The notes under the pieces are model-generated. The model was not told where the DNA came from. It worked only from the letters and a program-made list of their open reading frames with translations, and ran no database searches. 64,000 bases of DNA from an uncultured virus (IMG/VR IMGVR_UViG_3300021478_000027) (Duplodnaviria; Heunggongvirae; Uroviricota; Caudoviricetes), in IMG/VR virus record IMGVR_UViG_3300021478_000027; one strand, written 5' to 3'. The position numbers and the translations under genes are program-made. This document shows, one piece after another, positions 898-54,767 of the stretch; position 1 is the first letter of the stretch, and the number at the start of each line of letters is the position of its first letter.

Positions 898-1452
898 TTA
901 ACGGTGAGGGCCAAGTCTCCCGGCGCCAACGACGGCTTGCACCTGCTGTTGGTGTTGCGAGGTAATGGCTTGGCGGGCACGCTCTCCTGCATAGGCCCCA
1001 ATACCATGCGTTGTCGCCGCCGCAAAGGCTTGTGCGGTAACGGTATGCTGATGCCCTGTTTGCGGCGCTTGCGCCATTACCGCCGAGACTGGGTTGGGTG
1101 GTGGTGGCACGGCGGCGATCTCGCCTTCCTTCAAGCCGGTTCGGAGATTGGTGATCCTCGTGTGATCGTAGTCGGAGGCCGACCCGCCGCCGGCTTCAGC
1201 CATCATCTGCGTGCGGAGCGCGGAGGCATCTTCCATGCCGTAGTACACGTCGTCGGCGGCTTTGGCCTTTGCCGATAGGCCGTGAACGGCTGGGGCTGAA
1301 GGGACAAAGACCTCTTCGGGAGGGTCGGTTGAAACCCACGAGCCACAGAGCGGACAGCGATCGGGCGGTGGATCGTCTAATAAAACCTGCAAGTCTCTAA
1401 ACGTCCCACGACAGTCCGGACACTTCCAAGATCGGTATTTAGCCATCACCAT
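898..1452 (-). CDS. Zinc-ribbon (FmdB-like) protein between terminase and portal
   Basis: YRSWKCPDC...CPLCG, two CxxC pairs at the N-terminus. Confidence 0.6.
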   Translation of the reverse strand: MVMAKYRSWKCPDCRGTFRDLQVLLDDPPPDRCPLCGSWVSTDPPEEVFVPSAPAVHGLSAKAKAADDVYYGMEDASALRTQMMAEAGGGSASDYDHTRITNLRTGLKEGEIAAVPPPPNPVSAVMAQAPQTGHQHTVTAQAFAAATTHGIGAYAGERARQAITSQHQQQVQAVVGAGRLGPHR

Positions 1453-3392
1453 CTCCGCGTCGAGAAGACTTGCCGCCTCGGTGAGCCAATCCCCGATCGC
1501 CAGTTCTGCCGCAACGCCTCTGTAGCAGCCCGATGCCGCATCCCCTCCTTATCCTTAAAGAAGGATTGCATCGTATATTTGTTAACCAGAGCATATTGGT
1601 CAAGGATCGACGCGGAAAGGCGGGCCTTCTCGGCTTCGCGCGTGCGGTTGCTGGCAATAAGGCCGCGTCGCATTTTCTCGTCCCATGCGCGGATGCCAAG
1701 CGCCGCGGCGAACGAGCGGTCATCGCGCTTCTTCCCCGGCGCACCGATCGTGTCGCCTTCGCGGGTGATCGTCCGCATCTCCTCAATCAGCTCGATCGAG
1801 TGCGGGATGAAGGTTTCCGAGTTCAGATAACCACGCTCGGCTTCAAGAATTTGGATTTTGCGCTGGGTGGAGGTCACCCATTGATAATTATGGCCCGATC
1901 CCATCGAATCCGAGCGTTGGAAGACATAGTTGCGGGCATTTGCCGTGATATTGGCGAGACCCTTCTTCTCGAACTCGGCACGCAGATAGCCCTGCTGAAT
2001 CAATTGCCGGGTCTGCTGGTATTGCCGCCAAACCTCCTCGCCGGGCCCGTTCAACTCGCAGATGGTCATCACGGTAGAATCGGGTTCCTTGCCGTAATAG
2101 CCGACGAGGCCCCAGAGCAGCCAGGCGAATTGATGCGGGCGGATCGTCGCCGTCGCGTACTCGGCGACCTGCTCGATGCAGTCGGCGTAACAGCGCAGCA
2201 CCTGGGCGCAGGAATTATTGTTGTCCTCGTTGTGCCCAAATGCCGGGTCGCCCGCGACAATGTAGACGCCGCTCGTCACCGGCTCTTCCCAGATACGCAA
2301 TTCGATCTCGCGCAGGAAGCGGGACGGTTGGAAGTCGCATTCGGTCAACTTGTTGATGCCGGCGATGAACTTGTAGGTCTGCGCCTTGGGACCGGAGGAG
2401 ATGCGAACCGAGTTGGCGGTTAGAACCTCAGTATCAAAAAAGCTGGCGCCCGATTGCTGGAAAGCTTCGTCCTCGGTCCAGGGCTGTTCCTGGATGAGGT
2501 TGGAGTCCTCGGCGTCGCCCTCCTCCATATCCTGCGTCGGGTCGGACTTCTTGCGATACCACGCCAATTGCTCGGCAGTGATCTCCCAATCGTAGCGTTC
2601 TTTGACGGCGGCGATCCGCTTTAGTTCGGACGGGGTTGGCTGGTACTGACCGTATTTATAAAATTCGAGCGTGTTTTCGCGGATGATCTGGTTGTCCTTT
2701 GCCCACCAGCCGAGGAAGAGCGTGCGTTTGGCATCGTCGTCCTGCGCCTCCAGCCACATGTCATGCCAGGAATTGAACCCACGCGCGGTGGATTCCCACA
2801 AATAGAGGCGTTCGGGATAGGTCTCCGACAGAGACTGGCGAAAGGAGGTCAGCCCTTCGTCGTTATTCCACGAGCACAGTTCCGAGCAATGGCAAAAGTT
2901 AAGACCGACCGACCGACCCAGACCACCGGCTGACCGGCTCTGCTTGACGCCCGCCGCCATAAAGAGGATCTGCGAGTCATTTTCGAGAATCAACGCGTCG
3001 CGGTTGTTGTCGCGAATGCGCGGAAAGGCGAGCGATGACGGCAAGTTCGAGATGATGTTGATGATCTCGCGGCGGGCGGCGGCGGTGTTGTAGGCCGTGT
3101 CGAAGACGAAGGCGCCTTGCAGGCCGGGGTTCACGCCGAGCCAGAAGAGAGAGAGCGCGCGACTGATCGTGGAGACGCCGAGCTGGCGGGATTTCAGCGT
3201 GTAGAGTTCGTGCTGGCCTTCGAGGAGCGCGTCGAAGATCGCTTCGAGAAACCAGCTTTGGGCGCGGTAGATGTGGTCGCCAAGGCAGGTGTGTCCACCG
3301 AGTTCCTTGGAATTGATATAAACGGAGGAGACAAACTCCCGGAACCCGCGGCGGAAGGCATCGACCCGCTGTGGCGACCAACCGTCGCTCAT
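1446..3392 (-). CDS. terL: Terminase large subunit
   Basis: Walker A-like LKSRQLGVST, Walker B-like FCHCSE, coupling motif WESTARG, RNase H-like IVAGDPAFG and C-terminal RDDRSFA; 648 aa. Confidence 0.92.
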   Translation of the reverse strand: MSDGWSPQRVDAFRRGFREFVSSVYINSKELGGHTCLGDHIYRAQSWFLEAIFDALLEGQHELYTLKSRQLGVSTISRALSLFWLGVNPGLQGAFVFDTAYNTAAARREIINIISNLPSSLAFPRIRDNNRDALILENDSQILFMAAGVKQSRSAGGLGRSVGLNFCHCSELCSWNNDEGLTSFRQSLSETYPERLYLWESTARGFNSWHDMWLEAQDDDAKRTLFLGWWAKDNQIIRENTLEFYKYGQYQPTPSELKRIAAVKERYDWEITAEQLAWYRKKSDPTQDMEEGDAEDSNLIQEQPWTEDEAFQQSGASFFDTEVLTANSVRISSGPKAQTYKFIAGINKLTECDFQPSRFLREIELRIWEEPVTSGVYIVAGDPAFGHNEDNNNSCAQVLRCYADCIEQVAEYATATIRPHQFAWLLWGLVGYYGKEPDSTVMTICELNGPGEEVWRQYQQTRQLIQQGYLRAEFEKKGLANITANARNYVFQRSDSMGSGHNYQWVTSTQRKIQILEAERGYLNSETFIPHSIELIEEMRTITREGDTIGAPGKKRDDRSFAAALGIRAWDEKMRRGLIASNRTREAEKARLSASILDQYALVNKYTMQSFFKDKEGMRHRAATEALRQNWRSGIGSPRRQVFSTRRW

Positions 3393-3649
3393 CGCATCCG
3401 CAGTCCGCTCTGCCGCTGTTGCAATTCTTGCATGTACTGCGCGACCGCCGTATCGACGCGAATTTTGAGCGAACCCCAGAAGTGCTCAGCGCTGGGCGTG
3501 CCTTCGATGGTCAACACCTCGATGGTGCCGGCCAGTTGCCCGTTCTCGTCCAGCGGCGGAACGATGAGTACGGCGCCTGAGAACTCTTGCGCCTTCACGC
3601 CTTCGATGCGATCGGCCATCGCGCGGAACAGATCAGCTGGGCTTGCCAC
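3389..3649 (-). CDS. Hypothetical protein
   Basis: Probable GTG start at 3649; overlaps its neighbours in the operon. Confidence 0.5.
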   Translation of the reverse strand: MASPADLFRAMADRIEGVKAQEFSGAVLIVPPLDENGQLAGTIEVLTIEGTPSAEHFWGSLKIRVDTAVAQYMQELQQRQSGLRMR

Positions 3650-3860
3650 GTTTCCCTCTCTGCGTATAACCGTCGAGCGTCGCATGCAGCGCCTGCCCGA
3701 TCGACGGCGCGTTCCAGATGCTGTCGGCTTGTTCTGGCGTGACCGGGTGCGCCGATGTTTTGCCACTCTGGTACGCGACGGTCATCGTGCCCTTTTCAGG
3801 GTCATACGATATCGCGTCGATGTACGAGCTGTAGACGCGCTTGACGAGTGGTTCAGCCAC
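3633..3860 (-). CDS. KTSC domain protein
   Basis: VYSSYIDAISYDPEKGTMTVAYQSG...VTPEQADSIWNAPSIGQ matches the KTSC pattern. Confidence 0.75.
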   Translation of the reverse strand: MAEPLVKRVYSSYIDAISYDPEKGTMTVAYQSGKTSAHPVTPEQADSIWNAPSIGQALHATLDGYTQRGKRGKPS

Positions 3861-4097
3861 CGAACTTCCTCCCGATCTTGAGGTAATCCCTGATCGCGTC
3901 GTCCTCCGCCACCTCGCTCGCGGCGCGGCCGGCTTCCGTAATCACGTAGTTAACTTCGTCCACCTTACGCATAAAGCCGCGCCGGGTCAGCGCAAGGATC
4001 GGTTCCTTCCACCGCCCGATCGCGATCATCGACGACCCCTCCACGGCGATCATCAGCACCGTGCGCTCGTCGTCGGACAGCGGGACGATGGCTTCGC

Positions 4098-5000
4098 TCA
4101 TACCCCAAACCCCACAGGTTCGATCCGGTTCATCGTCAGCGCGAGACGCGTCTGCGACCAGCCGCTGGCACATGTCATGATCTGCTGCTCAAGGGCGCGG
4201 CCCGCTTCGGCACTCATTCTCTCATTGTGCCCGTGTTCCATCAACCGGCGCATCACATTGGTCCAGTTGTAGACCATGTGAAAAGCGCCCTTTTCGCTCA
4301 GTTGCAACCTCTCGGCGTCGGTTTGCGCGGCGAGTTGCTGGCCCATCACGCCCGTGTTGTCGGGGGACGGGTTCCACTCGTATGTGTGGAGAGGGATGTC
4401 AATATAATATAAGCCGCGTTCAAAGAGGGCCATGATCGGCAGCACCATGTCTTGGCTTTCGATGTTGCCGAGGGGCCCGTACTTTTCGTAAAGATCGCGC
4501 GCCCAGGCGCTGCTCGCGCTCGAGCCGATCAGGTACTGGATGCACTCGGCGGGAGCGATAAACCGGGAGCAACAATCCGGGAACGAGCTTTGGCCGTTCT
4601 GACCGGCGCCAACATAGGTCACCTTTGTGCCGATGTAGGAGGGGTTGAACTTTTCGAACGCTTCCAGCGTCTTCTCGGCCCGTTGCGGGTGATTGTAGTC
4701 GTCCGCCGAGCAGGAGATGATCAGGTCACTGCGGGCATGCTCGTGGAGCCAGTTGAACTGAACGTTGAGACCAGCCATCCCCTTCAAGTCGGTATGCGGG
4801 CAACGGACGAGCTTGACGGACTTCTTGCCGGTGTATTTGACGAACAGGGTGTTGACAATCTCGTAGCTGCCGTCGTCCGACCCCTGGTCGGAAACCAGCA
4901 CGTCGATATCGTCAATTGTCTGCTCCAGAATTGACTGTACGCAGCGTTCGACCCATTGCGCTTTGTTGCGCAGCGGAACCTGGAATGTGACTTTGCTCAC
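4098..5000 (-). CDS. Glycosyltransferase family 2 (GT-A), paralog of 53660..54580
   Basis: VTFQVPLRNK...SILEQT...VSDQGSDDGS...CSADD; probable GTG start at 5000. Confidence 0.85.
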   Translation of the reverse strand: MSKVTFQVPLRNKAQWVERCVQSILEQTIDDIDVLVSDQGSDDGSYEIVNTLFVKYTGKKSVKLVRCPHTDLKGMAGLNVQFNWLHEHARSDLIISCSADDYNHPQRAEKTLEAFEKFNPSYIGTKVTYVGAGQNGQSSFPDCCSRFIAPAECIQYLIGSSASSAWARDLYEKYGPLGNIESQDMVLPIMALFERGLYYIDIPLHTYEWNPSPDNTGVMGQQLAAQTDAERLQLSEKGAFHMVYNWTNVMRRLMEHGHNERMSAEAGRALEQQIMTCASGWSQTRLALTMNRIEPVGFGV

Positions 5001-5241
5001 TCTTCCGCCGCCTCGTACAGCAACCCTTCGGGCGTACACGGCGCGCCGAGGTTGCGCATCTCATAGCAAGCGACATGGCGGTTGGTCTGCCGCGCCACGT
5101 CATGACCGCAGCAGTAATACGCCGGCTCCCGGGCGCCGTTAAACAAGTGCTCTGCAACCTCGCGCCGAAACTCCTCTTGCGCCTCGCCAGTCGTAATGTC
5201 GCGCTCGTACATGTGCTTGCAGCGCTTGCAGGCCGGCACGC

Positions 5242-5796
5242 TCATTTTACCGCCTTCAGCACGATCTTGTATTCCTTGACGATGTTGAGGTTGACCAGCG
5301 CCATCTTCTCGAACACGGCCGGCTGATCCACCAGCTCGGGGAAGCGCGGGTCCACCACCCGCTCGACCGAGACCATCTCGAAATCCACGTCCCACATGTC
5401 GGCGAGACAGGTGTTTGCCGCCTTGTTCTCGCGGAAATAGGCATTGTTCCGCTTGCTTAAGAGGCTTAGCGAAGCCGGCGTGATCGCACGCACATGCGTC
5501 GGATCGTTGACAAAATCCTCGTGGAAAGGGTTGGGGCAGTTTATACGGACGAGGGCGTCAGGCGCGCAGACGCGGTAGAGTTCGCTGATTAAGTAATGAT
5601 ATTCTTCAACAAGCTCTCCCATGTGCTCTAAAGAATGATTAAACAACACCTCATCAACAGGATCATCATCGTCATCGGCAAAGCCCCAAAATTCTTTATC
5701 CAATTCCCAAACCACATCAGGCTTACATTGAGGATCGCTATCGACGTTCACCCAGCCGTCGAGTTTCTGGTAGCCGCACCCGGCATTGATTTTCAT
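5242..5796 (-). CDS. Class I SAM-dependent methyltransferase
   Basis: MKINAGCG...GWVNVD...HSLEH...ELYRVC...DPTHVR. Confidence 0.8.
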   Translation of the reverse strand: MKINAGCGYQKLDGWVNVDSDPQCKPDVVWELDKEFWGFADDDDDPVDEVLFNHSLEHMGELVEEYHYLISELYRVCAPDALVRINCPNPFHEDFVNDPTHVRAITPASLSLLSKRNNAYFRENKAANTCLADMWDVDFEMVSVERVVDPRFPELVDQPAVFEKMALVNLNIVKEYKIVLKAVK

Positions 5797-6812
5797 TGCT
5801 CTACCCACTCCGCATGCCCTTCGGCGACAAACCGCTCGAAATTCTCGTGGTTCTCCAACCAAAACTGCTCGGCAATCGCCGACAGCCCCTCGGGCGGGTC
5901 GTCATAGTCCGACCCCTTGATAAACTTCAGCTTCCCGCCGCGAAACGGCGGCAAGTGATCAAACCGCCAGACGACCCAAAGCTGCTGCTTGTCGGGCATC
6001 GCATAGGTCATCATCGACAACTTGACACCACCGCGGGCCTTGGCGTCGGCCTCGCCCTGCTTCAAATCGCGGTTCCCACAAACCAAAATCAGCGGCATGT
6101 CATTCACCCTCCCAGCCGGGCATGATCATAACAAGTACGGCGATATCCCCCGTCAGATGGCCAGCCACAACTAGCCACCTTTTTACATCCAGGTTCGTCG
6201 CAGATATTCTCAAATTGCTCGGCGGCTCGGCACTGTGGGCAGACGCTCCAAACCTGATCGCTCTCAGGATCGCTAAAGCGGACAATCTCACCCTCGTTGC
6301 CGCACCATTCGCATTCGGTACAGCGGAACAGGATCATCCCCTTATCCTTCCCAGGCAAATTGCCCGATGGTCCAGCCCGTGCGGGCATCTCAGGTCGGCG
6401 CAGATCGAGCAGCGGAAAATGGTCGGCATCGTCCTACTCGGCTCGTTGCCCGTCTGCATCCGCGCGAACACGCAGCGCCGGCAGCCGCACGCCGCCAACC
6501 ACGCATCATCGGCGCCGTGCATCAACCCGTATCCGCCACGCTAGAAGCTGCTGGTTGTGCTTCGGACAAATGGCTTGGTCCACCAGCTTGCCGGCGCCTT
6601 GGCTATAGCGTTTCACGTGAAACATTTTCACCATAACCACTCCTCCACCCCTATCGTCACGCGGAATGGCGACGGTTTACCTTGCTCTCGCTCAATGATG
6701 CGACGTAGCGGCCCCCACGCTTCAGGCGTATCCGTCTCGGCGATAGCCGCATTGAGCATTCTCAGGAATGACTCGCGACTGATGAGGGCCTGCCACTTAA
6801 CCAATTCAGCCA

Positions 6813-7430
6813 TCACCGCACCCCTATACCCATCGCGAGCAGATAGTGGCTCATCGGGAAGAACCCGCTGTGCAGCACCTCGTCATTCATCGACAGAACC
6901 AGAACGCACCTAAAGTATTGCTCCATTAGCCGCTTCAGGTCGCCGCCGGTCATGCAGGCGACGTGACCAAGCTGGCTCATCTCCGAGGCGTATTGCTGCG
7001 ATTCCAGCGATGGAATGCCGATGATGGCGCGCCCGTCCGCTCGCAGCGACGCGCAGACGTTGCGCAACACCGCATGGCTGTCGGCGATGTGCTCGAACAC
7101 GTCGAGCATGTAGATCGCTTCGTAGGGCCGGACGGGCAGGGGACCGTCCGTAATATCCCACTGCAACGCCCCGCTCTCCTCGCAGAAGCGTTCATCAAAG
7201 TCGTAGAGCCACAGCGCCCCAACAGCCTCTTTGACCAACCGTCCCGCAAAGCCATCGCCGCAACCAATCTCGGCCACCATCTCCACACCATCGAGAAGGC
7301 GGGCGACTTGCTTATACCGGCTCAGCGTGAACAGCAGCGTCTTCGGGTCGTCGCGCCAGCGCTGTGACGACATCGACCCCAGCGTCACAAGCGGTGTCGC
7401 GAAGCAGCGATCGTACTGGCGCTCGGTCAT
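6813..7430 (-). CDS. Class I SAM-dependent methyltransferase
   Basis: VAEIGCGDG motif I, LDVFEHI, LRADGRAIIGIP. Confidence 0.85.
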   Translation of the reverse strand: MTERQYDRCFATPLVTLGSMSSQRWRDDPKTLLFTLSRYKQVARLLDGVEMVAEIGCGDGFAGRLVKEAVGALWLYDFDERFCEESGALQWDITDGPLPVRPYEAIYMLDVFEHIADSHAVLRNVCASLRADGRAIIGIPSLESQQYASEMSQLGHVACMTGGDLKRLMEQYFRCVLVLSMNDEVLHSGFFPMSHYLLAMGIGVR

Positions 7431-7808
7431 TCCTTGCCTCCAGACGCGCGACCACGCGCCTCACCCTGCAGGTCGGCAGCGATCACATCAGAGCGGCCCT
7501 GCGCCTTCACCGCTTCCAATGTCTGATCCATCTTGGAATTGGTGTTTTCCTCCAACAACTTCATGTCCTTGCTGACTTCAAGAATAGAGTGCTTGGCACT
7601 CTGCGCTTCGCGCTTGGCCCGACTGGTCTCCACCGTGTTGTAGAGCAACACGCCAAACGCGCCCAACCCGATCATGTCGCTGAGCCAATCAGTCACAACG
7701 GGTGCCGCCAGTCGATCCAGCGATGCACCAGGGTCAGCACCAAGACACCGAACACACCGGCCATGGGGACCACGAACACCCAGAACGACGGCGTGTCCAT
7801 CGCCGCCA

Positions 7809-9161
7809 TCAGTCCGCTAAGCATGTCAGCTCCTCCCTCACCCGCGAGATCACGTCGCTCCATTGCTCGCCCAAAGACCGGCGCCAAAGCCGATGGTTCG
7901 GATACCAGATCGTGTCCTCACGCCCATGCTGCCAGCGCCAATCGCACCCCCGATCATTGAGCAGCAGCCAGGTCTTGCACCCCGCCGCGCCGGCCAAATG
8001 CGCCGCCGCCGTGTCCACGCTGATCAACAAATCCAACTGCTCGATCTCACGCAGGGTGTCCCGCATGTCGATGAGACCCGGCGACAGGTCGCGGATCAAC
8101 CCGTGCACGCCCAGCTTGTTCATCTCGTCCATGCCGCGCGGCCCTACCTGCAACGACACAAACTCAAGCCCCGGCACTTCAGTCAGCGGCAGCAAATCGA
8201 CAAGCGCGATGCTCCGTGACTCATCGTTGTCGTGGTTCGGGTCGCCCGCCCAGACCAGACCCACGCGCCAAACCGGACTCTCAGATGTATCGCCGGTTAA
8301 AATCCGCGGCAAATACGCCGCCTCCGTTGCCTTCAACCCCAGCGCCGGAAGATTCATAAGAGGTGCCCATGCGTCCACGCCACTTCCCGGCAGCGCACAG
8401 GGCATCGCCTCAACCTCCATGTCAGGCCACCCCCCGCGGCAGAGGCTCACCAGCTCCCGCTGTATCTGCAAAATCACCCGGTCGGCGCGACCGATTGCGG
8501 TATCCAGATACCGCAACATCTGAATGCTGTCGCCCAACCCCTGCTCGCTCCTCAACAGCAGCGTCCCCGTCCGCTCACCACGCCAGCGCGGGTAGGGAAA
8601 ATCATCCATCTCCGGCATCTTTAGCGGGATGCGCACCTCGAACTCCCGCCACCCCTCCTCCCACTGGCCGTTAAAGAACAAGGCAAAGGCCAACGCGAGG
8701 TGCGCGAGATTACGCTCGACAAGAGGCGTGACAGGAGCCAAATGCGCGCCGAGGCGGGCTTGCTGCAAGCTCTCCTCATCCTTACCGAGCGTGCAGAGAA
8801 CATGGCTCAAGTTCGTATGCGCCAAGCCAAAGGTCGGATTGGCCTCGATCGCTTCATACAAAACACGGCACGCCTCGTCCGTCCTCCCTGCCAGATGCAG
8901 GTTCCACCCCAACGCCGTCAACGTCATCGAGTCGCCCGGCTTTAGCGCGTTGGCTTTGGCCAACGCCGCCGCCGCCGCCGCCCACCACTTCGGCTGCCCC
9001 TTCAGACTATGGACCGAGAAACCCTCGCAGATCGCCCCATACAAATACCAGGCCCGCGCGTTCTGCGAGTCATCCCGCAACGCCGGAATCAGGAGCTGAT
9101 AGGCGAGACCAGCGTTGCCCGCCTTCACCGCGGCCTCGGCTTGGGCGAGAAAATCAGTCAC
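7809..9161 (-). CDS. TPR-repeat protein with C-terminal GT9-like (GT-B) glycosyltransferase domain
   Basis: N-terminal TPR-like helices (AWYLYG, ALGWNL, AHTNLS); EQGLGDSIQMLRY; VGLVWAGDP; LDLLISVDTAAAHLAGAAG; DWRW. Confidence 0.82.
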   Translation of the reverse strand: MTDFLAQAEAAVKAGNAGLAYQLLIPALRDDSQNARAWYLYGAICEGFSVHSLKGQPKWWAAAAAALAKANALKPGDSMTLTALGWNLHLAGRTDEACRVLYEAIEANPTFGLAHTNLSHVLCTLGKDEESLQQARLGAHLAPVTPLVERNLAHLALAFALFFNGQWEEGWREFEVRIPLKMPEMDDFPYPRWRGERTGTLLLRSEQGLGDSIQMLRYLDTAIGRADRVILQIQRELVSLCRGGWPDMEVEAMPCALPGSGVDAWAPLMNLPALGLKATEAAYLPRILTGDTSESPVWRVGLVWAGDPNHDNDESRSIALVDLLPLTEVPGLEFVSLQVGPRGMDEMNKLGVHGLIRDLSPGLIDMRDTLREIEQLDLLISVDTAAAHLAGAAGCKTWLLLNDRGCDWRWQHGREDTIWYPNHRLWRRSLGEQWSDVISRVREELTCLAD

Positions 9162-9930: not shown

Positions 9931-10035
9931 TTGCCTTGCCTTGCCAAGCCTTGCTCTACCAAGCCTAGCCGTACCGCGCCAAGACCAGCCCCGACGCGCC
10001 GTGCCTGGCCGAATCATGCCCAGACACACCCTGCC
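9931..10035 (-). ncRNA. Pentamer array C (21 GGY-NN units), candidate guide RNA
   Basis: Minus strand: GGCAG GGTGT GTCTG GGCAT GATTC GGCCA GGCAC GGCGC GTCGG GGCTG GTCTT GGCGC GGTAC GGCTA GGCTT GGTAG AGCAA GGCTT GGCAA GGCAA GGCAA. Intergenic, starting 3 nt after a TAA stop. The periodicity is directly visible; RNA function is inferred. Confidence 0.75.
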
Positions 10036-10038
10036 GTG

Positions 10039-10569
10039 TTAAACCTTCTTCCCCCCGAATAACTCAAGCGTCCTCGCTATCGGCAACTGCCCCGTCATCT
10101 CCGTGTTCACCGCACCAGCAATGCGATCAACCGACCGCGGCTTGCCAATCACTTCCATCAACTTCAGCGCAGACACGGTGGCGTTGGCGCGCACCTTCTC
10201 GGCATCAGGCAGCGCATCCCAGTCGGCTACCGCCATCACCCGATCAACCCCTCGGCGCGCCATGCGACGCATCCGTCCAAAGATGCCCAACCCGCTGTTG
10301 GTCAACTCAACGTCCGTCGCTCGCCGGATGCCAATGTTGTTCAGCGGGTCAGTCACAATCTTGTATTCGCGCAAGCAGATATGCCGAGCTGAATGTAGAA
10401 TATGCCTCGCTTCAGCCTGCACATCCTGGCCAATCAGCTCATTCAGTTCTCGGTATCGGATCAACTCTCCAACCGACATTCGCTTGATGCGGTCGACCAG
10501 AACCGTCGTCTCAATCGCCCGAGAAAACGGATAGGACCGACCCTCAACAACCTGAGATCTCGTTTCCAT
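10039..10569 (-). CDS. Accessory protein of the RAMP/pentamer locus (176 aa, possible winged-helix)
   Basis: ATG at 10569 with upstream GGAG. METRSQ...GELIRYRELNELIGQD...ARHICLREYKIV...NNIGIR. The ORF-track extension to 10716 only translates array B. Confidence 0.65.
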   Translation of the reverse strand: METRSQVVEGRSYPFSRAIETTVLVDRIKRMSVGELIRYRELNELIGQDVQAEARHILHSARHICLREYKIVTDPLNNIGIRRATDVELTNSGLGIFGRMRRMARRGVDRVMAVADWDALPDAEKVRANATVSALKLMEVIGKPRSVDRIAGAVNTEMTGQLPIARTLELFGGKKV

Positions 10570-10584
10570 TGCTGTAACTCCGTA

Positions 10585-10684
10585 AAACCTTGCCTTGCGT
10601 TGCCGGGACAAGCCAAACCTTGCCGAGCCACGCCGCGCACTACCGCGCGGAGCCACGCTAAGACGAGCGCTGCCCGGCCACGCC
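10585..10684 (-). ncRNA. Pentamer array B (20 GGY-NN units), candidate guide RNA
   Basis: Minus strand: GGCGT GGCCG GGCAG CGCTC GTCTT AGCGT GGCTC CGCGC GGTAG TGCGC GGCGT GGCTC GGCAA GGTTT GGCTT GTCCC GGCAA CGCAA GGCAA GGTTT. Starts 3 nt after the RAMP gene stop. Confidence 0.75.
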
Positions 10685-10687
10685 GCG

Positions 10688-11293
10688 TTAAGCCGCCTTC
10701 CCCAATTGCTCCTCAATCACAACAAACTCATTCACTTTAAACCGCCCGTAAAACCCCCGGTTTCTCGGCCTAAATCGCCCAATCCCAACAAACTGCCCAA
10801 ACCGCTCAAGCACAAACTCAAACACAGTTGTTCCAGTCGCCGGCCACGTCTGCAACACCGTGTCATCAAAAATTATAAAGTTAAATTCAGCCTTCCAACC
10901 GTCCTGAATAACCGGAAAATACTTATGTACCCGCTTAGAACCTCCTGCGCGACCATCAGCAGGAACAAACAAGCGCTCGCAACTCACATCCTCGGCCTGA
11001 ATCCCAAGCATCGCCGGCTCAAGAGCCATCACGCCAGCCTCGAAATGCTTGGTGTACGTCGCCTTGCCCTTTCCGGGTATACCAAGCGACAGAAACTTAG
11101 CCGTCTCCGCCAAACCGTTTTTGAATGACATTGGCGGAATAAAAACCTCCCCCTTCTGGTTTACATGAAGTCGGTTCCGCCACGTTCGCTTTTCATAATC
11201 CTCAAACCCTTCGCCCTGAAGTTTCTCAACTTCATAAGAACGACCTTGCGAATACGGCGACACACCCTCTACAGAAGCGACAACTGTTTTCAT
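10688..11293 (-). CDS. Stand-alone Cas7/RAMP-like RNA-binding protein (Vipr-like)
   Basis: Beta1 VVASVEGVSPYSQG; VFIPPMSFKNGLAETA (compare the Cas7 IPgSSxKG motif); C-terminal Gly-rich loop GQFVGIGRFRPRNRGFYGRFKV; 201 aa; RBS GAGGAG; flanked by pentamer arrays. Confidence 0.75.
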   Translation of the reverse strand: MKTVVASVEGVSPYSQGRSYEVEKLQGEGFEDYEKRTWRNRLHVNQKGEVFIPPMSFKNGLAETAKFLSLGIPGKGKATYTKHFEAGVMALEPAMLGIQAEDVSCERLFVPADGRAGGSKRVHKYFPVIQDGWKAEFNFIIFDDTVLQTWPATGTTVFEFVLERFGQFVGIGRFRPRNRGFYGRFKVNEFVVIEEQLGKAA

Positions 11294-11309: not shown

Positions 11310-11394
11310 AAACCCTGCCTTGCGATGCCCTGCCGAACCAAGCCATACCGAACTAAGCCCAGCCCTGCTACGCCATGCCCTACTAAACCGCGCC
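11310..11394 (-). ncRNA. Pentamer array A (17 GGY-NN units), candidate guide RNA
   Basis: Minus strand: GGCGC GGTTT AGTAG GGCAT GGCGT AGCAG GGCTG GGCTT AGTTC GGTAT GGCTT GGTTC GGCAG GGCAT CGCAA GGCAG GGTTT. Ends just before the RAMP gene RBS. Confidence 0.75.
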
Positions 11395-11404
11395 GAGAAA
11401 AACC

Positions 11405-11674
11405 TTACCGACTCACTCCACCATATCCCCCATACCCACGCCCATAGTCCCGGCTCACACCACCCCCATCTCCATACGACGGAGCCGGCGTGTACCGATA
11501 CTCCTGAACCGACGACCCAGGAGACACAAACACCCCACCACTCCCGTCCCGGTTGCTCCGGTACTCCGTCACGCTATGCCCCGGATCGATGATCACACCG
11601 TCCCTCAAACCCTGCGCATAGGCCGAAACCGCCCAAACCGCCGAAAACGCCAGCAATCCCAACAGCTTAACCAT
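11405..11674 (-). CDS. Small secreted Gly/Tyr-rich protein
   Basis: Signal-peptide-like MVKLLGLLAFSAVWAVSAYA-Q; internal repeat PGHSVTEYR/PGSSVQEYR. Confidence 0.55.
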   Translation of the reverse strand: MVKLLGLLAFSAVWAVSAYAQGLRDGVIIDPGHSVTEYRSNRDGSGGVFVSPGSSVQEYRYTPAPSYGDGGGVSRDYGRGYGGYGGVSR

Positions 11675-11965
11675 GTTTTCCTCCTCCGCAGCGACTCACT
11701 ATATATAGGGCGCTCTCGCGCCCCCCTCACTCCTCCACCAGCGCCGAGATGTCCCACGGTCGGTCCCGCAACGCTCGCGCCGGAAAGGGGACCCGGGCAG
11801 GGCGAGGCGCCTTCTCTTCCAACGGCAGCATGTCAGCCGCCAACAACACCTCATCCATCCGGCGCCAGTGATCCAGCGCCAACCGACGCCAGTGATCCAG
11901 CGGCTTGATCTCAGCCATCACCCAACTCCTCATGCTGTTTATATATAGGGCGCCATGCGAGACGC

Positions 11966-12151
11966 TCATTCCGTCAGCCCCCCAACCATCCGACGCCGCT
12001 CCAACTCAACCGCTCCACGCGCCCCTAACTCCCGCTCAATCAATAACCGCAACCACTCCCCAACACTCCGATGATCCTCCGCCGCCGCGTCAAACAATCG
12101 GCGCCGCAAATCCCCACTCAACCGCAAACTAAACGTGCCCTTCTCCATCAC
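11966..12151 (-). CDS. Ribbon-helix-helix (Arc-like) DNA-binding protein
   Basis: TFSLRLSGDLRRRLFDAAAEDHRSVGEWLRLLIEREL. Confidence 0.7.
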   Translation of the reverse strand: MMEKGTFSLRLSGDLRRRLFDAAAEDHRSVGEWLRLLIERELGARGAVELERRRMVGGLTE

Positions 12152-35704: not shown

Positions 35705-37513
35705 TCATTGGATGCCCAGTGCTGAATGTTGGGGTGATTGATAGCCTACCGCTGCGCCGATGGCCGGGATGGTTCGCTGAATGCCGGAGGAAACAGCTTC
35801 TCGGCTGCGATCAAAAGCGGACGGCTGCGTCTGCCGAAGTTTTTCCGCCGCCTCAAACATCTGTTTCACCGCTCTATTAGGACTGAACATATGTTCTCTC
35901 ATGCTCCTGAAAATTTGGAACCCCGCTGCCGACGCTAGCGCGCTAGGATCAAAATGCACCAGAGCATGAATCAGCTGATCACCAGAGGCGATATCCAAGA
36001 GCGTGCTTCCAAGGCCACCCTTTACATTTCGCCCTTGAACAATAGACCTGTGGACGACATCCTTTTCGATGGAGCGGACCTGACCGTAAGCGTTCTTGAG
36101 CGCTTGATATCCCGGACCTGTGGCTTTTTCGATAGTCGTGTCCAGCGCCTCACGCATTTTATTGGCCACCATCGCATCGATAGCCGCCGATCGTGATGCG
36201 TAATTTGGCGTAGCCTGCCGATAGAACGCCTGTAGTTTCCCGTTGAAATTTTTAATGGCTTCCTGCGCCTCTAACGGAGTATACGCTACTTTCGCAGCGT
36301 AGTTATCTGCCAATTGATTTGCGGCCCTGACGACATCACTATCGCTTTCAGCTAAAGTAGACTTCCCAAGTTTTCGCAATTCCTTGACAATAGGATTAAG
36401 ATCAACCCACAGGCCTTTGGTTTTTTTTAGAGCCTCTTGCTCGATTGCGGACATACGATCAAGGTTAGCTCTGGCGGCGTTTAATTCTTTTCTGGCCGCA
36501 GCCTGCCCCTCTATCGAGTTCATGCCGGACAATCGCATTTCAGCATCTCTAACTGCCAGACTTGCATCCATCGCTTTTGATTGAGCCTGCGCCAAGTCTC
36601 TCTGGAATGCCTGTGGAACAGGTGCGCCTACATTGGTTGCGGCAGACGCCGCTGTAGCTTTAGCGTTGTATTCCTCAAATATTTTCCGCTTTGTCTGATC
36701 TATGGACTCCGCGAACTGTGCAAGGCTCTGTGGAGCCTGTCCGACGATTTTGTCGGGTCTAGTCGGATCAGTAAGCTCCAGAGAACCTTTTCTATCGAGA
36801 ATGTGGTCTAATGCGCCTCGGAAACCGGCATAAGCATCATTCGCCTTGGTGACAGTCCCCTTCCCAGCCACGCCTGGCTTGATGTATTGCGTATAAACGT
36901 GCTTGATAAAATTTTCGGCAGCTTCCGGCGTCCCGAGAGAAAGGGCATGAGATAGCGCCCCAAACGCTCCACCACCTGCTCCGCCTTCAAGCCCGCCCCT
37001 GACAAGCTGTCCCGCCTTGCCTTTCGCGAAATCGCCTGAAGTCTCGGGGGTCGCGGCACCACTGATTGCGCCGCCCATCGCGCCTTGGACAATGCCAGAC
37101 CCAACCCGGCCCATCAGGCTAGCGCCACCCATCTCGGGCGCGATGATCGACAAGGGTGCGGTCAGAGCAACATCACCGGCAATCCCGCCGACTGTGCGGC
37201 CCCAGCCTTTGTTGTAACCCTCTTTCTCAAGCTGCTTCTCGCGCTGCTGCAACTGAACATCAACGGCCTTGGCCGCTTCCGGCTGGACCTGATTGGCCTT
37301 TTCTTGCTCAGCCGTGTACGCAATCGGTGGCGGATCGAGCGTCGCGTGTGCGCCAATCTGTCCAAGACCGTAAATCTTATCCATCAAGCCCGCGCCAAAG
37401 CCTTGGGCGAACGATGGCGGTTGATCTAACGGAACATTATCCGGCAATCGCTGTGCACTGCCGGCAGACGGCGCGTCGAGCTTCACATCGTCAGGGAGTT
37501 TTACGGCTGCCAT
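35705..37513 (-). CDS. Putative internal virion (ejection) protein
   Basis: 602 aa, helical, with an Ala/Gly-rich segment; podovirus ejectosome position. Confidence 0.55.
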   Translation of the reverse strand: MAAVKLPDDVKLDAPSAGSAQRLPDNVPLDQPPSFAQGFGAGLMDKIYGLGQIGAHATLDPPPIAYTAEQEKANQVQPEAAKAVDVQLQQREKQLEKEGYNKGWGRTVGGIAGDVALTAPLSIIAPEMGGASLMGRVGSGIVQGAMGGAISGAATPETSGDFAKGKAGQLVRGGLEGGAGGGAFGALSHALSLGTPEAAENFIKHVYTQYIKPGVAGKGTVTKANDAYAGFRGALDHILDRKGSLELTDPTRPDKIVGQAPQSLAQFAESIDQTKRKIFEEYNAKATAASAATNVGAPVPQAFQRDLAQAQSKAMDASLAVRDAEMRLSGMNSIEGQAAARKELNAARANLDRMSAIEQEALKKTKGLWVDLNPIVKELRKLGKSTLAESDSDVVRAANQLADNYAAKVAYTPLEAQEAIKNFNGKLQAFYRQATPNYASRSAAIDAMVANKMREALDTTIEKATGPGYQALKNAYGQVRSIEKDVVHRSIVQGRNVKGGLGSTLLDIASGDQLIHALVHFDPSALASAAGFQIFRSMREHMFSPNRAVKQMFEAAEKLRQTQPSAFDRSREAVSSGIQRTIPAIGAAVGYQSPQHSALGIQ

Positions 37514-39711
37514 TTAGAGCCATCCGGCGCCTGGTAAACGTCTTTGCCTTGATATGTCCCGATCTTCTTTGAGCCGGCAGGGATGCCGGGGGGCAATGCT
37601 TCGGTTGGCCCTCCTCCACCCTTGCCCGCTTTATCCGTAGTTTCCAGCGCTTCCTTCGTATGGTCAAACAGCTTCTCGCGAAACGTTCCTTGCCGCTTTT
37701 CATCCTGACCAGCGTACTGAAATTCCAAACCGCGCATCTGACCTAACATGAGGCGCCGCGCTGTCTGGATCACACCCTTGAGCTGTTCAGGTGAACTGGA
37801 CCGATCAAAGTCTGCTTGCAACTCAAGACGTTCCGCTCCCGTACCCGCGTTGTTGCCTAAAACAGCTTTAACAAGCTCGTCGGCTACAATCTTTTTAGCG
37901 ACATCGAAGTCCACCGGACCTTCATAGCCAAATTCTACGAGAACGCGGTTCTTAAGGGCATTAAGCTTTGGCGTATCCTTATTCTGCAAGGCATCGGCTA
38001 ACTGCTGCAAAACGTCGGTATGATCGATCGCCACATTAAGCGAGCGTATCGTATTTCCCTGCGCGCCTGACCCAAACGCCTGTTCCATCGCCCCCAATGC
38101 TCGGATGCGAGCAGCAGCCATAGCCACCGCTTCAAAGCCGGCCTCAGGATGCTCCTCCATAAATTTCTGCATGGCGATGGCAGGCGCTGAGCGCGGCTGG
38201 CTTGTTCCCCTTAATCTGACACTGCCGCCCGGAGGAACCTCCAGCGGTTCATTGGTACCGGCCATGAACCATGAGCCATCGGAAGATTGATAAGCCGCTA
38301 CATTTGTTCTAGTAACCTTACCGTCTGGTCCAACAATATCGATGTTCTTCGCTGCGGAGGGTTTAGAGAACGTGCCGGCTGCTTGGCGCTTGGCCTCTCC
38401 CTCATGCTGCAAGTGCTCTGCGGGTGTAACCGGGCGACCCTCTTTTTGTTCTAACTCCTTATCTTTCTGCTCCACAGAGGCGGCTATCTCTTTCTCTTCG
38501 CGGGCTTTCTTGGCATTGTCGTGTTGCGCCTCAGTAATCTGCGTCGTTAATTGCTGAACCCGCAGACTTTTCTCGATGTTTTCGACGCTCTTCGGATCGA
38601 GATGCTGCTGAAGCTGGTACGCAGTCGAAAGCGTCCCAAGCTCCGTGACCTTTTGATCGTAACTCTTGCGGGCGTCCTCCACGATGTCGCGCGCTTCACC
38701 ATGCAGCAACTCGATCAGCTTCAAGCCGTTGTCGTTGTGGTCCTTCCAGCGCTTGTAGGCGATGTCATAGGCCCGCACGTCGGCCTGGTTCGCTGCCTGC
38801 AACATCTCGCCAGCCGCGTTGATCGCAGCCGTATGGTTCTTTCCAAAGAACCCGCCGAGCATCGCCAGCCCGATGGCCGCGCCCGCCCACTGGTTCCAAT
38901 TCTCACGCATGTCCTGGGGCGGATGCTCGCTGCTCAACTCCCACTTGGCCATCGCCGCCCGTGCGACCTTGCGCAAGTCCTTCCCTTCTGCGAGCGCGTC
39001 GTCATACTCCTTGCTGCGCTTCTGAATGTCCTGCTGCCAGGTTTGCAAGTATGCGCTGGCACCCGCGTTAAAGGAACCAAGCGCGTTAGATCGCAGGTTT
39101 GTCTCCTCGCTTCCCGGCGAGCCGGCGGGACGCTCAAACGAACTGGTGAATACCCCGTATCCCTCCTGTTCGCTGATATTCGGGTTCATCAACTCCGCTT
39201 TGTGCTTTGCGGCAATCGCATCGCCCCCGTTAAATTCTGAAATGGAAAACTTCGCATCCGCCCGCGCAATGGCCACGGGGTCGTTCATATCGACTTTGTT
39301 ATTTTTTAGATAGTTTGCAAACTTTACGGCTCGCTCACCGTGATGCTGGGTAAGACCGATAGAAGTAGGATTGCCGTATTCGTCATAATCACCTGTTGCA
39401 TAAACATTCCAACCGGATTCCACACCAACGCGACGAGACGCTCCTTCAACCGCAGCCGGCGGATATCCCGCCGCGAGCCATTCGTCGCGCCACGCATCTT
39501 TGATCGGATTTGATTGACCGCCAATATCCTTAGGCATAGCGGCGATCTGCTCACCCGGGATTGAGTTGGGCAGAACCGCTGGATGACTAGAATTATTCGG
39601 CAATGGCAATGGCTGATCGCGGCTGATGTCCGAAGGCTGGAACGTCGCCCCGCTCGGCAGGGTAACGATAGACCCACCAGGCGGCGCTGGCTCGGCGACA
39701 AGTCCGTTCAT
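37501..39711 (-). CDS. Internal virion (ejection) protein with phage tail-lysozyme domain
   Basis: GYPPAAVEG...VESGWN...SIGLTQHHGER...FTSSFERP followed by long coiled-coil helices. Confidence 0.7.
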   Translation of the reverse strand: MNGLVAEPAPPGGSIVTLPSGATFQPSDISRDQPLPLPNNSSHPAVLPNSIPGEQIAAMPKDIGGQSNPIKDAWRDEWLAAGYPPAAVEGASRRVGVESGWNVYATGDYDEYGNPTSIGLTQHHGERAVKFANYLKNNKVDMNDPVAIARADAKFSISEFNGGDAIAAKHKAELMNPNISEQEGYGVFTSSFERPAGSPGSEETNLRSNALGSFNAGASAYLQTWQQDIQKRSKEYDDALAEGKDLRKVARAAMAKWELSSEHPPQDMRENWNQWAGAAIGLAMLGGFFGKNHTAAINAAGEMLQAANQADVRAYDIAYKRWKDHNDNGLKLIELLHGEARDIVEDARKSYDQKVTELGTLSTAYQLQQHLDPKSVENIEKSLRVQQLTTQITEAQHDNAKKAREEKEIAASVEQKDKELEQKEGRPVTPAEHLQHEGEAKRQAAGTFSKPSAAKNIDIVGPDGKVTRTNVAAYQSSDGSWFMAGTNEPLEVPPGGSVRLRGTSQPRSAPAIAMQKFMEEHPEAGFEAVAMAAARIRALGAMEQAFGSGAQGNTIRSLNVAIDHTDVLQQLADALQNKDTPKLNALKNRVLVEFGYEGPVDFDVAKKIVADELVKAVLGNNAGTGAERLELQADFDRSSSPEQLKGVIQTARRLMLGQMRGLEFQYAGQDEKRQGTFREKLFDHTKEALETTDKAGKGGGGPTEALPPGIPAGSKKIGTYQGKDVYQAPDGSKWQP

Positions 39712-40961
39712 TGAGCGATTGCCTTATCCACAGCACTGCCGATCGGCACGAGACCCTTTGCAAGATTGCCGATTGCCGCACTGAAATCGCTCTGCTGCTT
39801 CAACTGCGCGTTGAGCAACGTTTCGAGTTCTTGCTGCGAAATATGCGTCCAGTCCAGCCCCTGCGAGGCAAGCTGCGCGCCGATCAGCGCAATCTGACCA
39901 GCGGTCGCCCGATCAGCCTGCTCCAACTGCTGATGTTCAGCCGTGGAACCTGTGTAGCCAAGCTGGGCAAAATTCGACCGAATCCCAGCCTTGTCCGCCG
40001 CGTTCTTCGCATCAACAACTTGTTGCATTCCCGGCGGCAAGGTGCCGCTGAGTTGATACGCGCTCAGCGTTTTGCCCATCGATGCGGCTTGCTCTTGCGC
40101 GTTCTGCAACTGCGCCTGACCCGGCACTTGGCTCGGTTTGCCGAACATCGACAGCAAGGCCGGTGCGGCGCTCAGCAGCAATCCGGGGTTCTTCTTGGCG
40201 AAGTCGATGATTTTAGAACCAATATCTGCTGGAGCAGTCGCTTTAGCCGCCGTGGTCGCAGCATTGGTCGTGCCGACGCCGGGCTGAGCCGTCGCCGCAG
40301 TAGCTGGAGTACTGACCCCACCGCTCGGCGCCATCGCAACCTGCGTCGCGTCCGCCGCGGGCACCCCGCCGCCTGTCGCCGAAGCCAGTGGCGTTGCGGA
40401 TGTCGCCGGCATCGTCGTTGGCGCGGATACGCCAAAGCTCGCTGCACTTGGCCCAGATGGCGCGGCGATGGGCGCGCTCGTAACTGGCGCTGCACCCGCT
40501 GCCCCAATTTCGGGTAGCGACCCAGGTTGCATCTGATCGCCAAATGTGCTGGTCGGCGAGCCAACAACGCTAGGCGAGCCGCCAAACAGACTAGTTGCTG
40601 ATCCCGCCAGTTCGGAAGCGCCAAGGCCGGCACCAAGCGCCGCCGCCGCACCACCCGCCGCCGCCTCCCCACCAATGCCCGCACCTACAGCCGGGGCAAT
40701 CACGGAAACTTCCGGCAGGGCTATGCTCGCGCCAATGCCTCCTGCGAGTTCGGGGGCTAAAGCCGCCGCCGCAACCGGCGCTGCCGCTGCCGCGCCAACA
40801 TCAGCGGCACCTAATCCGCCGGCCAACAACGCGCCCGATATAGGGTCGTGGAATACTCCACGCACCCGCTCCGGCCTAACGACATAACCAAACGCCGCCG
40901 CCGCAAGAAGCGCTATGTCGAACCATGCAAAGTCGATCATGACCGCCGCTCCAATCGGCAC
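39708..40961 (-). CDS. Putative internal virion/pilot protein
   Basis: Ala/Gly-rich hydrophobic N-half and Gln-rich C-half. Confidence 0.55.
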   Translation of the reverse strand: MPIGAAVMIDFAWFDIALLAAAAFGYVVRPERVRGVFHDPISGALLAGGLGAADVGAAAAAPVAAAALAPELAGGIGASIALPEVSVIAPAVGAGIGGEAAAGGAAAALGAGLGASELAGSATSLFGGSPSVVGSPTSTFGDQMQPGSLPEIGAAGAAPVTSAPIAAPSGPSAASFGVSAPTTMPATSATPLASATGGGVPAADATQVAMAPSGGVSTPATAATAQPGVGTTNAATTAAKATAPADIGSKIIDFAKKNPGLLLSAAPALLSMFGKPSQVPGQAQLQNAQEQAASMGKTLSAYQLSGTLPPGMQQVVDAKNAADKAGIRSNFAQLGYTGSTAEHQQLEQADRATAGQIALIGAQLASQGLDWTHISQQELETLLNAQLKQQSDFSAAIGNLAKGLVPIGSAVDKAIAQ

Positions 40962-41392
40962 ACATCGCGCCCTAGCAGATGTTGCATCTTACCAGTTCGG
41001 TGGAATCCTAGCCATTCCAGCCAGCGAATGGACTTTGCCTCTTCCACAGCGACATCAACGAACAAATCGCCATAGACATCGGACCAGCGTTTGATCTGCG
41101 CGTGGCTTTGCTGCAAAAACAGTTTTTTATGCCGCTCCACGCGCTCGGTAGACGCGATCATCCAGCAAAAGCCGCCAACCGGCGTACGAGCCACCCCGCC
41201 CATCGCGATAGGGTCGCCATCGGCAAAGTAGGTAAAGCTCTCCGTCGAGTTATCCAGCGATGAACAGAGCATGTCGGCTGGCGAGGCATTCAGTTGCTCG
41301 GAGAGCGAAACCATCTCCTTCCGCCGCGCAGAAGACATCTGCGCCAGCAGCGGTTCGATGTGTTCATACTCGCCTGGCAACCGCGTCATCAT
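40937..41392 (-). CDS. GNAT-like protein (T7 gp13/DUF2833-like)
   Basis: PIAMGGV...CWMIAS...SIRWLEWLGF. Confidence 0.7.
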   Translation of the reverse strand: MMTRLPGEYEHIEPLLAQMSSARRKEMVSLSEQLNASPADMLCSSLDNSTESFTYFADGDPIAMGGVARTPVGGFCWMIASTERVERHKKLFLQQSHAQIKRWSDVYGDLFVDVAVEEAKSIRWLEWLGFHRTGKMQHLLGRDVCRLERRS

Positions 41393-42300
41393 TTTGTAAT
41401 GACCCAATCCACCCAATCACCGTTCAGTTCACCCGAGAGTTGCGACAGGGCACAGTCGCAGGACCACCCGCTGAGGATAAAGACGACCTTCTTGGTCCGC
41501 GCCCAATCGCGGCAAAATCGATACAGGTCCATGAGGTTCTGCGATCCTTCCCCTCGGATTTCGACGCCCATCCGCCGCTCACCAATCGGCTTCGCATGCC
41601 GCGACCAGCCAAACCGCTCGATCACAATCGACCGCCTCGATACCGGATCGATCTGCGTCATAGCCAGCAGCACGGCATCGACATTCTTGATGAACAGAAA
41701 GTCGTTGCTTGAGGACCACGTTGAGATCTGCCCCTTCATCGTCGGCGCGGTATAGAGACCCGGCCAATAGAAATTGCAGCGGTCCAGCAGCCACTCGCCC
41801 CACTCGTTCCAATCTTGCAACGTCATCCGGCTAATTTCCGCCGGCACCCGCGTAGAACGCACCGGAGCCGGTGCGTTAATTGGAAATTCCTGGGGGGTGG
41901 GCCTGTTTAGCGGCGGGCGACCCCGTGGGCGTGGGAGTACCTGTGGTTCCATCAGTTCAACCCCAAAATCTGAGCGGCCTGCTGGTGCATGTCAAAATGC
42001 AGGCGGACCCACGCATCTAGCTGGTCCTTGTTGCGGAAATCAACAGAGGATAGGTCGAAGTTTTCAATGTTCAGCACGCTCGCGAAGTCGTTGTGCGCTT
42101 GCTGATGGAGTTGCAGCCACCCCGTCACATTACTCACCGGGAACGGGTCCAGCGGATACAGGGTCAATTGCTGGTTAAATTTAACAAACGATTGCTGAAC
42201 AATTGCGAGATGCTGCGCTTGATTGCTGAACGACCACTCGAACACGGAGGGCAGGTTCCCCATGTCGGGCGTGTTGAGCAGTGTCGCCAGAGACATCGCA

Positions 42301-53659: not shown

Positions 53660-54580
53660 ATGAAGGTCTCCTTCATCGTTCCCGCGCGGAATAAAGAGCA
53701 TTTTATCCGCAATACGGCGCAATCGGTTCTCTTACAAACCTACTCGCCGATGGAAATCGTCTTTAGCGACCAGGGGTCGACCGACGATACGCTCGGTATC
53801 CTGCTCGATATGGCCGAAACCTATAACGGCCCCAACACCGTCCGCGTTATCCAATGCCCCCATACCGAGCGAAAGGGTATGCCGGGGCTTAATGCTCACC
53901 TCAACTGGCTACACGGCCAGATCGATAGCGATATCGTCATCATGTGCTCGGCGGACGATCTGAACAATTCAAAGAGAGCAGAATTAACGGTAAAGGCATT
54001 CGAGGAACACGATCCGTCTTACGTCAATACCGGGGTCATCTACCTCAACCCAAACGACCCAGAAGACCTCCCAAAGGTCACTGCATTCCCCGACAAGTCG
54101 AGTCGCTGGCTCCAGCCTGCCGAAACAATCAAGCACCAGATCGGATCATCCGGCTCATCCGCGTGGGCACGCGACTTGTACGAAAAGCACGGACCGCTGG
54201 AAGGTTGCGAGCAGCAGGACATGATCCTGCCGATGATGGCGCTGATCGAGCGCGGCATCTATTACGTGGATGAGCCGCTGCACACCTACATCGCGCACGC
54301 CTCACTCGATAACACCGGGTTCATCGGCCAAATCAATGCCGCCGAGAACGAAGTACATAAGATGCAACTCGTCGAGCTGAACGATTTTATCAACGTCTAC
54401 AACTGGACAAACATCCTGCGGCGCTGGACCGAGCTGCCGGAGCAATTCGCCGCGCTCGCCAGCGATGACGCAGCCATGAACGCCCTCACGGAAAAGATCA
54501 GCAACTGTGCTGATGCGTGGTCCAACGTGCGCAACCACATGATCATCAACGATGTCTACCCGATAAAGATGAGGACGTAA
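53660..54580 (+). CDS. Glycosyltransferase family 2, paralog of 4098..5000
   Basis: VSFIVPARNK...FSDQGSTDDT...CPHT..KGMPGLN...CSADD...IGSSGSSAWARDLYEK. Confidence 0.85.
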   Translation: MKVSFIVPARNKEHFIRNTAQSVLLQTYSPMEIVFSDQGSTDDTLGILLDMAETYNGPNTVRVIQCPHTERKGMPGLNAHLNWLHGQIDSDIVIMCSADDLNNSKRAELTVKAFEEHDPSYVNTGVIYLNPNDPEDLPKVTAFPDKSSRWLQPAETIKHQIGSSGSSAWARDLYEKHGPLEGCEQQDMILPMMALIERGIYYVDEPLHTYIAHASLDNTGFIGQINAAENEVHKMQLVELNDFINVYNWTNILRRWTELPEQFAALASDDAAMNALTEKISNCADAWSNVRNHMIINDVYPIKMRT

Positions 54581-54767
54581 TGCGTGATCCCTTTAAGGCT
54601 GATATCCGCCCAGACAAGTGGATGGACTGGATTCGTATTACCGAAGAGCAATTCGGCACAGTTTTGCGATTATCCTCAATGGGTGAAAGTTTGCATCTGA
54701 CAGCTCGAACGGCTATGGAGCTGAAGGCTGTAATCGACGAATGGCTCACGCTTCCAATGCCGATGCA

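Follow-up and report, generated by a model that had tools for sequence, protein, structure and literature searches.

A phage VIPR locus with two guide arrays probably directed against a foreign allele of a virion ejection gene

Two of the three guide arrays identified in this uncultured phage, arrays B and C, probably silence a foreign allele of an ejection-protein gene, judging from their fit to the protein family of this gene. The reading that we favor, at slightly better than even probability, is that of a phage VIPR system, in which B and C are aimed at the ejection-protein gene of a related, unsampled phage or prophage in the same host. VIPR systems silence genes in a CRISPR-like manner and were reported in 2026 (10.64898/2026.04.26.720920). 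Their guides skip one nucleotide in every three, usually the wobble position, and for natural targets a cut-off of 80% was used, above which no self match was found (10.64898/2026.04.26.720920).

The window, i.e., the whole stretch of 64,000 nucleotides that was analyzed, represents a phage genome of approximately 63.5 kb with terminal redundancy; its last 50 bases recur at position 411. An array scan of the window revealed three minus-strand GGY/NN arrays in the vicinity of a Vipr gene. Array C (11310..11409) comprises 20 pentamer units, 15 of which contain an exact GGY, and its variable core consists of 13 units starting at 11394. It is followed by the vipr gene (10688..11293, 201 aa), which encodes a RAMP (Cas7-like) protein and lies between arrays C and B. 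Array B (10585..10694) overlaps the vipr stop codon and has 22 units, of which 14 are exact GGY and all carry a pyrimidine in the third position. The candidate vap accessory gene (10039..10569, 176 aa) separates it from array A (9931..10045; 23 units, 17 exact GGY). Within array B, 16 to 17 variable units (from 10684 or 10689, respectively, to 10605) precede a constant AA-AA-AA-TT end of four units, which is typical of the arrays in this clade. The 3′ boundary chosen in the preliminary description is therefore natural, but the array itself is longer than described there, with 22 units from 10694 to 10585.

The only sequence match of the Vipr protein in the PDB was the SUSP1 Vipr (E 0.033), and a profile of 18 clade sequences matched the same protein (36pp_D) with an E-value of 2.2e-7. 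Among the Foldseek results for the structural model (pLDDT 89.9), the top matches were Cas7/Csm3 folds (best E 4.5e-8, TM about 0.55). A stand-alone RAMP fold with thumb and G-loop was found, the latter aligning with SUSP1 residues 170-187. Of 21 other clade loci, 14 have GGY arrays and 15 have homologues of the vap candidate in the neighborhood of vipr. The vap candidate belongs to a virus-specific family with Atlas matches to unnamed viral clusters (0.95-0.96) and weak winged-helix likeness (TM 0.43 to winged-helix regulators), and no match was obtained in Pfam, PHROG and NCBIfam. Neither a CRISPR RNA family nor any other Rfam match was present within the window, and no cas genes and no integrase were found among the ORFs scanned, which are a subset of the ORFs of the window. 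With array B belonging to a set of three such arrays that flank vipr, the locus is, by its sequence features, a phage VIPR system of the published kind.

The arrays sit between the genes of one minus-strand operon. Each of them begins where the preceding gene has its stop codon (11405-11409, 10688-10694 and 10039-10045) and extends to the ribosome-binding site of the following gene, and thus the guides would need to be cut from a polycistronic mRNA. The promoter search yielded no candidate above chance and the terminator search none at all. Two available records, G001 and G002, are 100% identical across the VIPR locus and represent the same phage, and guide turnover is therefore not visible from them. 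Elsewhere in the window, several glycosyltransferase, methyltransferase and TPR genes (4098-9161 and 53660-55808) form a large sugar-modification accessory set for a phage of 63.5 kb. A 24-base unit is present in two copies at 11855-11902, within ORF 11727..11969. The minus-strand ORF 1446-3392 (648 aa) had no family match; by its motif it presumably resembles a large terminase.

Over all three arrays, 46 of the 65 units are exact GGY and the third position is a pyrimidine in 65 of 65. In SUSP1 Vipr, R138 and D177 read G2 and G1 and are essential, and R179 holds the pyrimidine, as stated in the accessible part of the report (10.64898/2026.04.26.720927). These two guanine-reading residues align with F126 and R173 of the Vipr analyzed here, F126 being invariant in the 18 clade sequences; the counterpart of R179 is retained as R175. 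The loose G1/G2 together with the fixed pyrimidine is consistent with R138 and D177 being replaced and R179 being kept.

The number of 20 to 23 units per array lies outside the 9-16 repeats of type II systems, and the 3′-ends of the arrays differ past the constant units. A conserved structured 3′ tail as in SUSP1-like type II systems was not found; folding z-scores of the arrays were 0.35, 0.09 and -1.06, pseudoknots being outside the method. At the ends of clade arrays (9931-9950, 10585-10604 and 11310-11329 in this phage, and in L003, L012, L015, L017 and L020) two to four near-constant units with AA or GA as NN were observed, and several clade arrays start with AAC. Neither the AA/GA end units nor the AAC starts fit the target, and the constant end units may be a processing or loading signal instead of a tail. 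In L007 (vipr at 8168), L008 and L010, six or seven short GGY arrays with repeated conserved spacers are located upstream of vipr, so that the Vipr clade comprises more than one array design. Triplets of the types GGT, AGT and GTC are abundant in arrays of L001 (near 5780-6220) and L013 (near 1815-1910). At the threshold used, no GGY array was found in L005, L011, L014, L016, L018, L021 and L022, and these loci may use other repeat words.

In the preliminary description, 16 NN dinucleotides of array B had been aligned with plus-strand triplets at 38968-39015, within the phage's own ejection-protein gene, under omission of every third base. The listed dinucleotides were confirmed by reading the minus strand from 10684, and recomputing the alignment reproduced identity in 9 of 16 dinucleotides and in 23 of 32 bases. 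The skip falls on the third codon position, with the alignment running from the last base of codon 248 (38968) to the first base of codon 233 (39015). This is the best skip-1 site for guide B in the window, followed by one with 20/32, and the control with other gap sizes that had been suggested gave at most 19, 20 and 20 of 32 for skips of 0, 2 and 3. For all three arrays, the best scores with skips of 0 and 2 were lower than with a skip of 1. Among 2,000 shuffles of the unit order, the control likewise suggested, 23 bases were reached in 0.4%, nine dinucleotides in 1.9% and both in 0.15%. With automatic trimming, the self match had a p-value of 0.010 (300 shuffles), and for the local score across all 22 units 102 of 3,000 shuffles were as good (p 0.034). 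The match is only suggestive, as graded before, since there were three arrays to choose from. In its longer form, the own-gene echo of guide B spans 38965..39015 (plus strand; codons 233-249) with 24/34 bases and the skip on the wobble position. As a base rate, none of 26 clade guides, taken from nine related records of 47-100% completeness that are mostly partial, had a skip-1 self match with p < 0.05, the lowest value being 0.077.

The matched gene (37501..39711, minus strand) encodes a protein of 736 aa with an N-terminal lysozyme-like domain. PF18013 was detected at residues 76-204 with 26 bits, which is below the cut-off of 28.2, and homologues of the protein carry this domain. The gene is the middle one of three genes that follow an internal virion protein gene (40937..41416, phrog_308, E 5.5e-22). 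Synteny and the sub-cut-off lysozyme-like stretch make a virion ejection role probable. The two closest relatives with DNA are the syntenic phages L068 and L070. The ejection genes of L068 are 55-72% identical to those of this phage, compared to 80-96% for most neighboring structural genes, and the ejection gene is mosaic among kin. Homologues with DNA were found in four metagenome loci; the search of viral contigs returned this phage only, that of genome contigs and annotated phages nothing, and an Atlas search with the core of the gene gave only leads below 0.9.

The seven mismatched units of the preliminary alignment were compared with this family. One of them is synonymous (Leu, TTG compared to CT in the guide) and shared with L068 and L070, and five of the six nonsynonymous units spell residues found among the first 19 homologues. 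A conditional test with 16 units and these 19 homologues gave six of seven units seen (P 0.028-0.156, depending on the null). With 17 units and 26 homologues, all eight units that differ from self match a homologue residue (P 0.002-0.056, depending on the null); the 17th unit and a 13-member subset of the homologues were picked after inspection of the data. On a family profile of 25 sequences, the best site of guide B is residue 233 with a score of 16.6, which was reached by 0-1 of 5,000 shuffles for B16 and B17, and the fit persists without self and its two closest kin. It is not independent of the self match, because the latter chose the family, and its p-value is to be discounted approximately thirtyfold for the genome-wide look (estimated from codon counts). 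The homologues P0004/P0009 and P0012/P0157 allow up to 29/34 bases for guide B, these values being amino-acid ceilings and not DNA matches, and P0158 is the only homologue with Thr at 243. In real DNA, guide B matches self with 24/34 bases and both L068 and L070 with 25/34, i.e., close kin match hardly better than self.

Guide C was not used in choosing the ejection gene, and no genome-wide look was needed for it. Its core C13 maps to residues 376-388, with a profile score of 15.6 at residue 376. Whether the profile included self or left out self, the two closest kin or P0011, 0-1 of 5,000 shuffles reached this score, compared to 0-2 for C14 with the same four profiles; the fit of C16, which covers the whole 5′-end, was weaker (45-70 of 5,000). 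Six of seven units in which guide C differs from self occur in homologues (P 0.005-0.15). For comparison, the highest score that any of 27 arrays from other clade loci attains on the ejection profile is 9.0, versus 16.6 for B and 15.6 for C. The own-gene echo of guide C is located at 38548..38586 (plus strand, codons 376-388) with 16/26 bases and the skip on the wobble position; L068 matches with 19/26 and L070 with 13/26, and the protein sequence of P0011 allows 21/26. Across L068, the best site of guide C lies in the ejection gene, in the same wobble phase and on the same strand as that of B (20/28). Both guides thus fit one gene on one strand and in one phase, with pairing to the coding strand. 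The best local match of guide C in its own genome (5243-5301) was at chance level (885 of 3,000 shuffles) and was rejected.

For guide A, a possible own-gene echo was found at 5290..5349 (plus strand, 24/40 bases, wobble phase) within the minus-strand ORF 5242..5796. The polarity is that of guides B and C, and 155 of 3,000 shuffles were as good (p = 0.052). Homologues of this ORF were not found in viral contigs, one distant phage match being obtained elsewhere, and the site is regarded as a lead only. A 24/38 match of guide A in the ejection gene of L070 was dropped, as guide A does not fit the family profile (724-2378 of 5,000 shuffles). Two 8-unit patterns of guide A yielded 15 and 10 matches in viral contigs, the best with 27/40.

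A search with the gapped pattern of guide B for near-perfect hits in homologues of the ejection gene had been suggested. The exact half-guides gave 17 and 27 matches in viral contigs with a best value of 25/32, and no translation of these sites resembles the family. Twelve units of guide B matched exactly nowhere in the metagenome contigs. No DNA target of at least 80% was found, the best being 25/34 (B) and 19/26 (C). The protein-level ceilings for the two guides come from different homologues, none of the 26 homologues allows 80% at both sites, and the sampled alleles all range between 60 and 77% across both. The earlier proposal that the target is the homologous gene of a related competitor is partly supported, in that guide B fits homologues where self differs and guide C points to the same gene, but not by a near-perfect DNA target. 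The real target is probably a relative or a satellite yet to be sampled, and the competing element need not be a phage, as a satellite may play this part.

In the favored reading, processing of the arrays probably yields vrRNAs, along which Vipr would polymerize with one subunit per GGY/NN unit. Each NN would pair with DNA and every third base would be skipped, as is known for SUSP1. Guides B and C would pair with the coding strand of the rival's ejection gene with the skip on the wobble position, as the family-level fit suggests, and the bound filaments would block transcription of the rival ejection cassette, resulting in non-infectious particles. Filament assembly, gapped pairing and transcriptional block are the VIPR mechanism of the literature. 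The phage's own allele, with a match of 62-71%, is below the 80% cut-off for natural targets and would probably escape.

The same mechanism and target gene are also compatible with a carrier other than a phage, namely a satellite or cryptic element that has its own ejection cassette and borrows the capsid of this phage, a possibility that we regard as real but rather unlikely. The SUSP1 satellite carries its own tape measure and baseplate genes, and 18 of 20 SUSP1 targets lie in a satellite (10.64898/2026.04.26.720920). Among the loci with homologues, L069 carries a compact minus-strand cassette (1913-8008) in which counterparts of all three ejection genes, two of them present as two ORFs each, are accompanied by a pair of scaffold-like genes and one small gene. 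IS110 and Mutator transposases flank this cassette, and L069 has no match to the capsid, terminase or tail genes of this phage. The cassette may be satellite-like or belong to a decayed prophage, the latter speaking against the satellite carrier. P0009 (29/34 for B) and P0158 are found on contigs of 211 kb and 676 kb, which are probably chromosomes, but P0012, with the same 29/34, is on a contig of 49 kb. Guide B matches L069 with only 19/32 bases, its gene being split in two ORFs, and in a homologue tree of 24 rows (omitting the fragments P0011, P0021, P0023, P0027 and P0028) L069 falls outside the 13-member clade of the best-fitting homologues (support 94/90).

Two further readings are less likely. 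That B and C are old guides, which matched an earlier allele (their own before a cassette swap, or that of a vanished rival) or which weakly dampen the phage's own late gene, is considered improbable. It would agree with the range of only 60-77% for the sampled alleles over both sites, with the mosaic ejection gene and with the 8 of 22 units of array B that lack an exact GGY, but degenerate triplets are usual in clade arrays and both vipr and vap are intact. Moreover, the differences between guide and self land on homologue residues and are not random, which decay would not yield, and no self match of at least 80% was found in the published survey (10.64898/2026.04.26.720920). Least probable is that the matches are due to chance and that the real targets are unrelated. 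The p-value of 0.034 for the whole-array self match of B, with three arrays available, and the fact that the ejection site of guide C (16/26) is not its best in the own genome would allow this. However, both guides map to a single gene with strand and phase in common, each at about 2e-4 compared to unit shuffles, and none of the 44 exact half-guide matches of B in viral contigs exceeds 25/32. The chance reading is largely refuted by the family-profile shuffles.

The favored phage VIPR system shares several features with those of SUSP1 and the Pseudomonas fulva prophage (type II). These are a Vipr of about 200 aa with RAMP fold, one accessory gene, flanking GGY/NN arrays, the 1-nt wobble skip and a self match below 80%; the targets, which lie in competing elements there, would probably do so here as well. 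It differs in the distant Vipr (profile E 2e-7), in 20-23 units instead of the published 9-16, and in arrays whose last units are constant AA and which lead directly into a ribosome-binding site, no folded tail being found. In addition, two guides point to the same virion ejection gene, whereas a recombinase or a lysis-lysogeny regulator is targeted there. In the SUSP1-F5 conflict, SUSP1 VIPR acts against F5 satellites, and solo vrRNAs are aimed at relatives, according to the accessible text (10.64898/2026.10.15.759431). That text also describes wobble-aligned guides, rivals with structural-gene homology to the carrier, as proposed here, and lower self-match scores than scores to other phages for the vrRNA-targeting guides. 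The targets named in it are a recombinase, REP elements, vipr and vrRNAs (10.64898/2026.10.15.759431), compared to a structural ejection gene, as indicated by family fit, in this study. Class 1 CRISPR systems (Cas7/Csm3 of types III and VII) share the fold with the Vipr analyzed here (TM about 0.55), but here no CRISPR RNA family and, among the scanned ORFs, no cas genes were found, and the code is a gapped pentamer code.

The system, its code, wobble skipping, the anti-phage and anti-satellite roles and the lower self-match are already published. The argument that wobble skipping resists synonymous escape, also put forward in the preliminary description, was made in the VIPR preprints (10.64898/2026.04.26.720920; in the accessible part also 10.64898/2026.10.15.759431). 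A search of the 2026 literature for VIPR in combination with ejection gave no related report. New in this study are two guides on one ejection gene, arrays that are longer and lack an evident folded tail, and the profile method. Compared to the targets given in the main texts of the reports, without their supplementary target tables, this would extend the target classes of VIPR to a virion ejection gene, which is hit twice. Guides below the 80% cut-off become assignable by protein-family-profile scoring, and a guide together with its own allele at 62-71% is a natural pair for measuring the mismatches that spare self. If a podovirus aims two of its three VIPR guides at a gene of a satellite's own ejection cassette, which seems possible but is not what we expect, DNA-delivery proteins would be a contested step between helper and parasite. 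If the assignment is true, decoding guides against a protein family would predict the sequence of a competitor yet to be sequenced.
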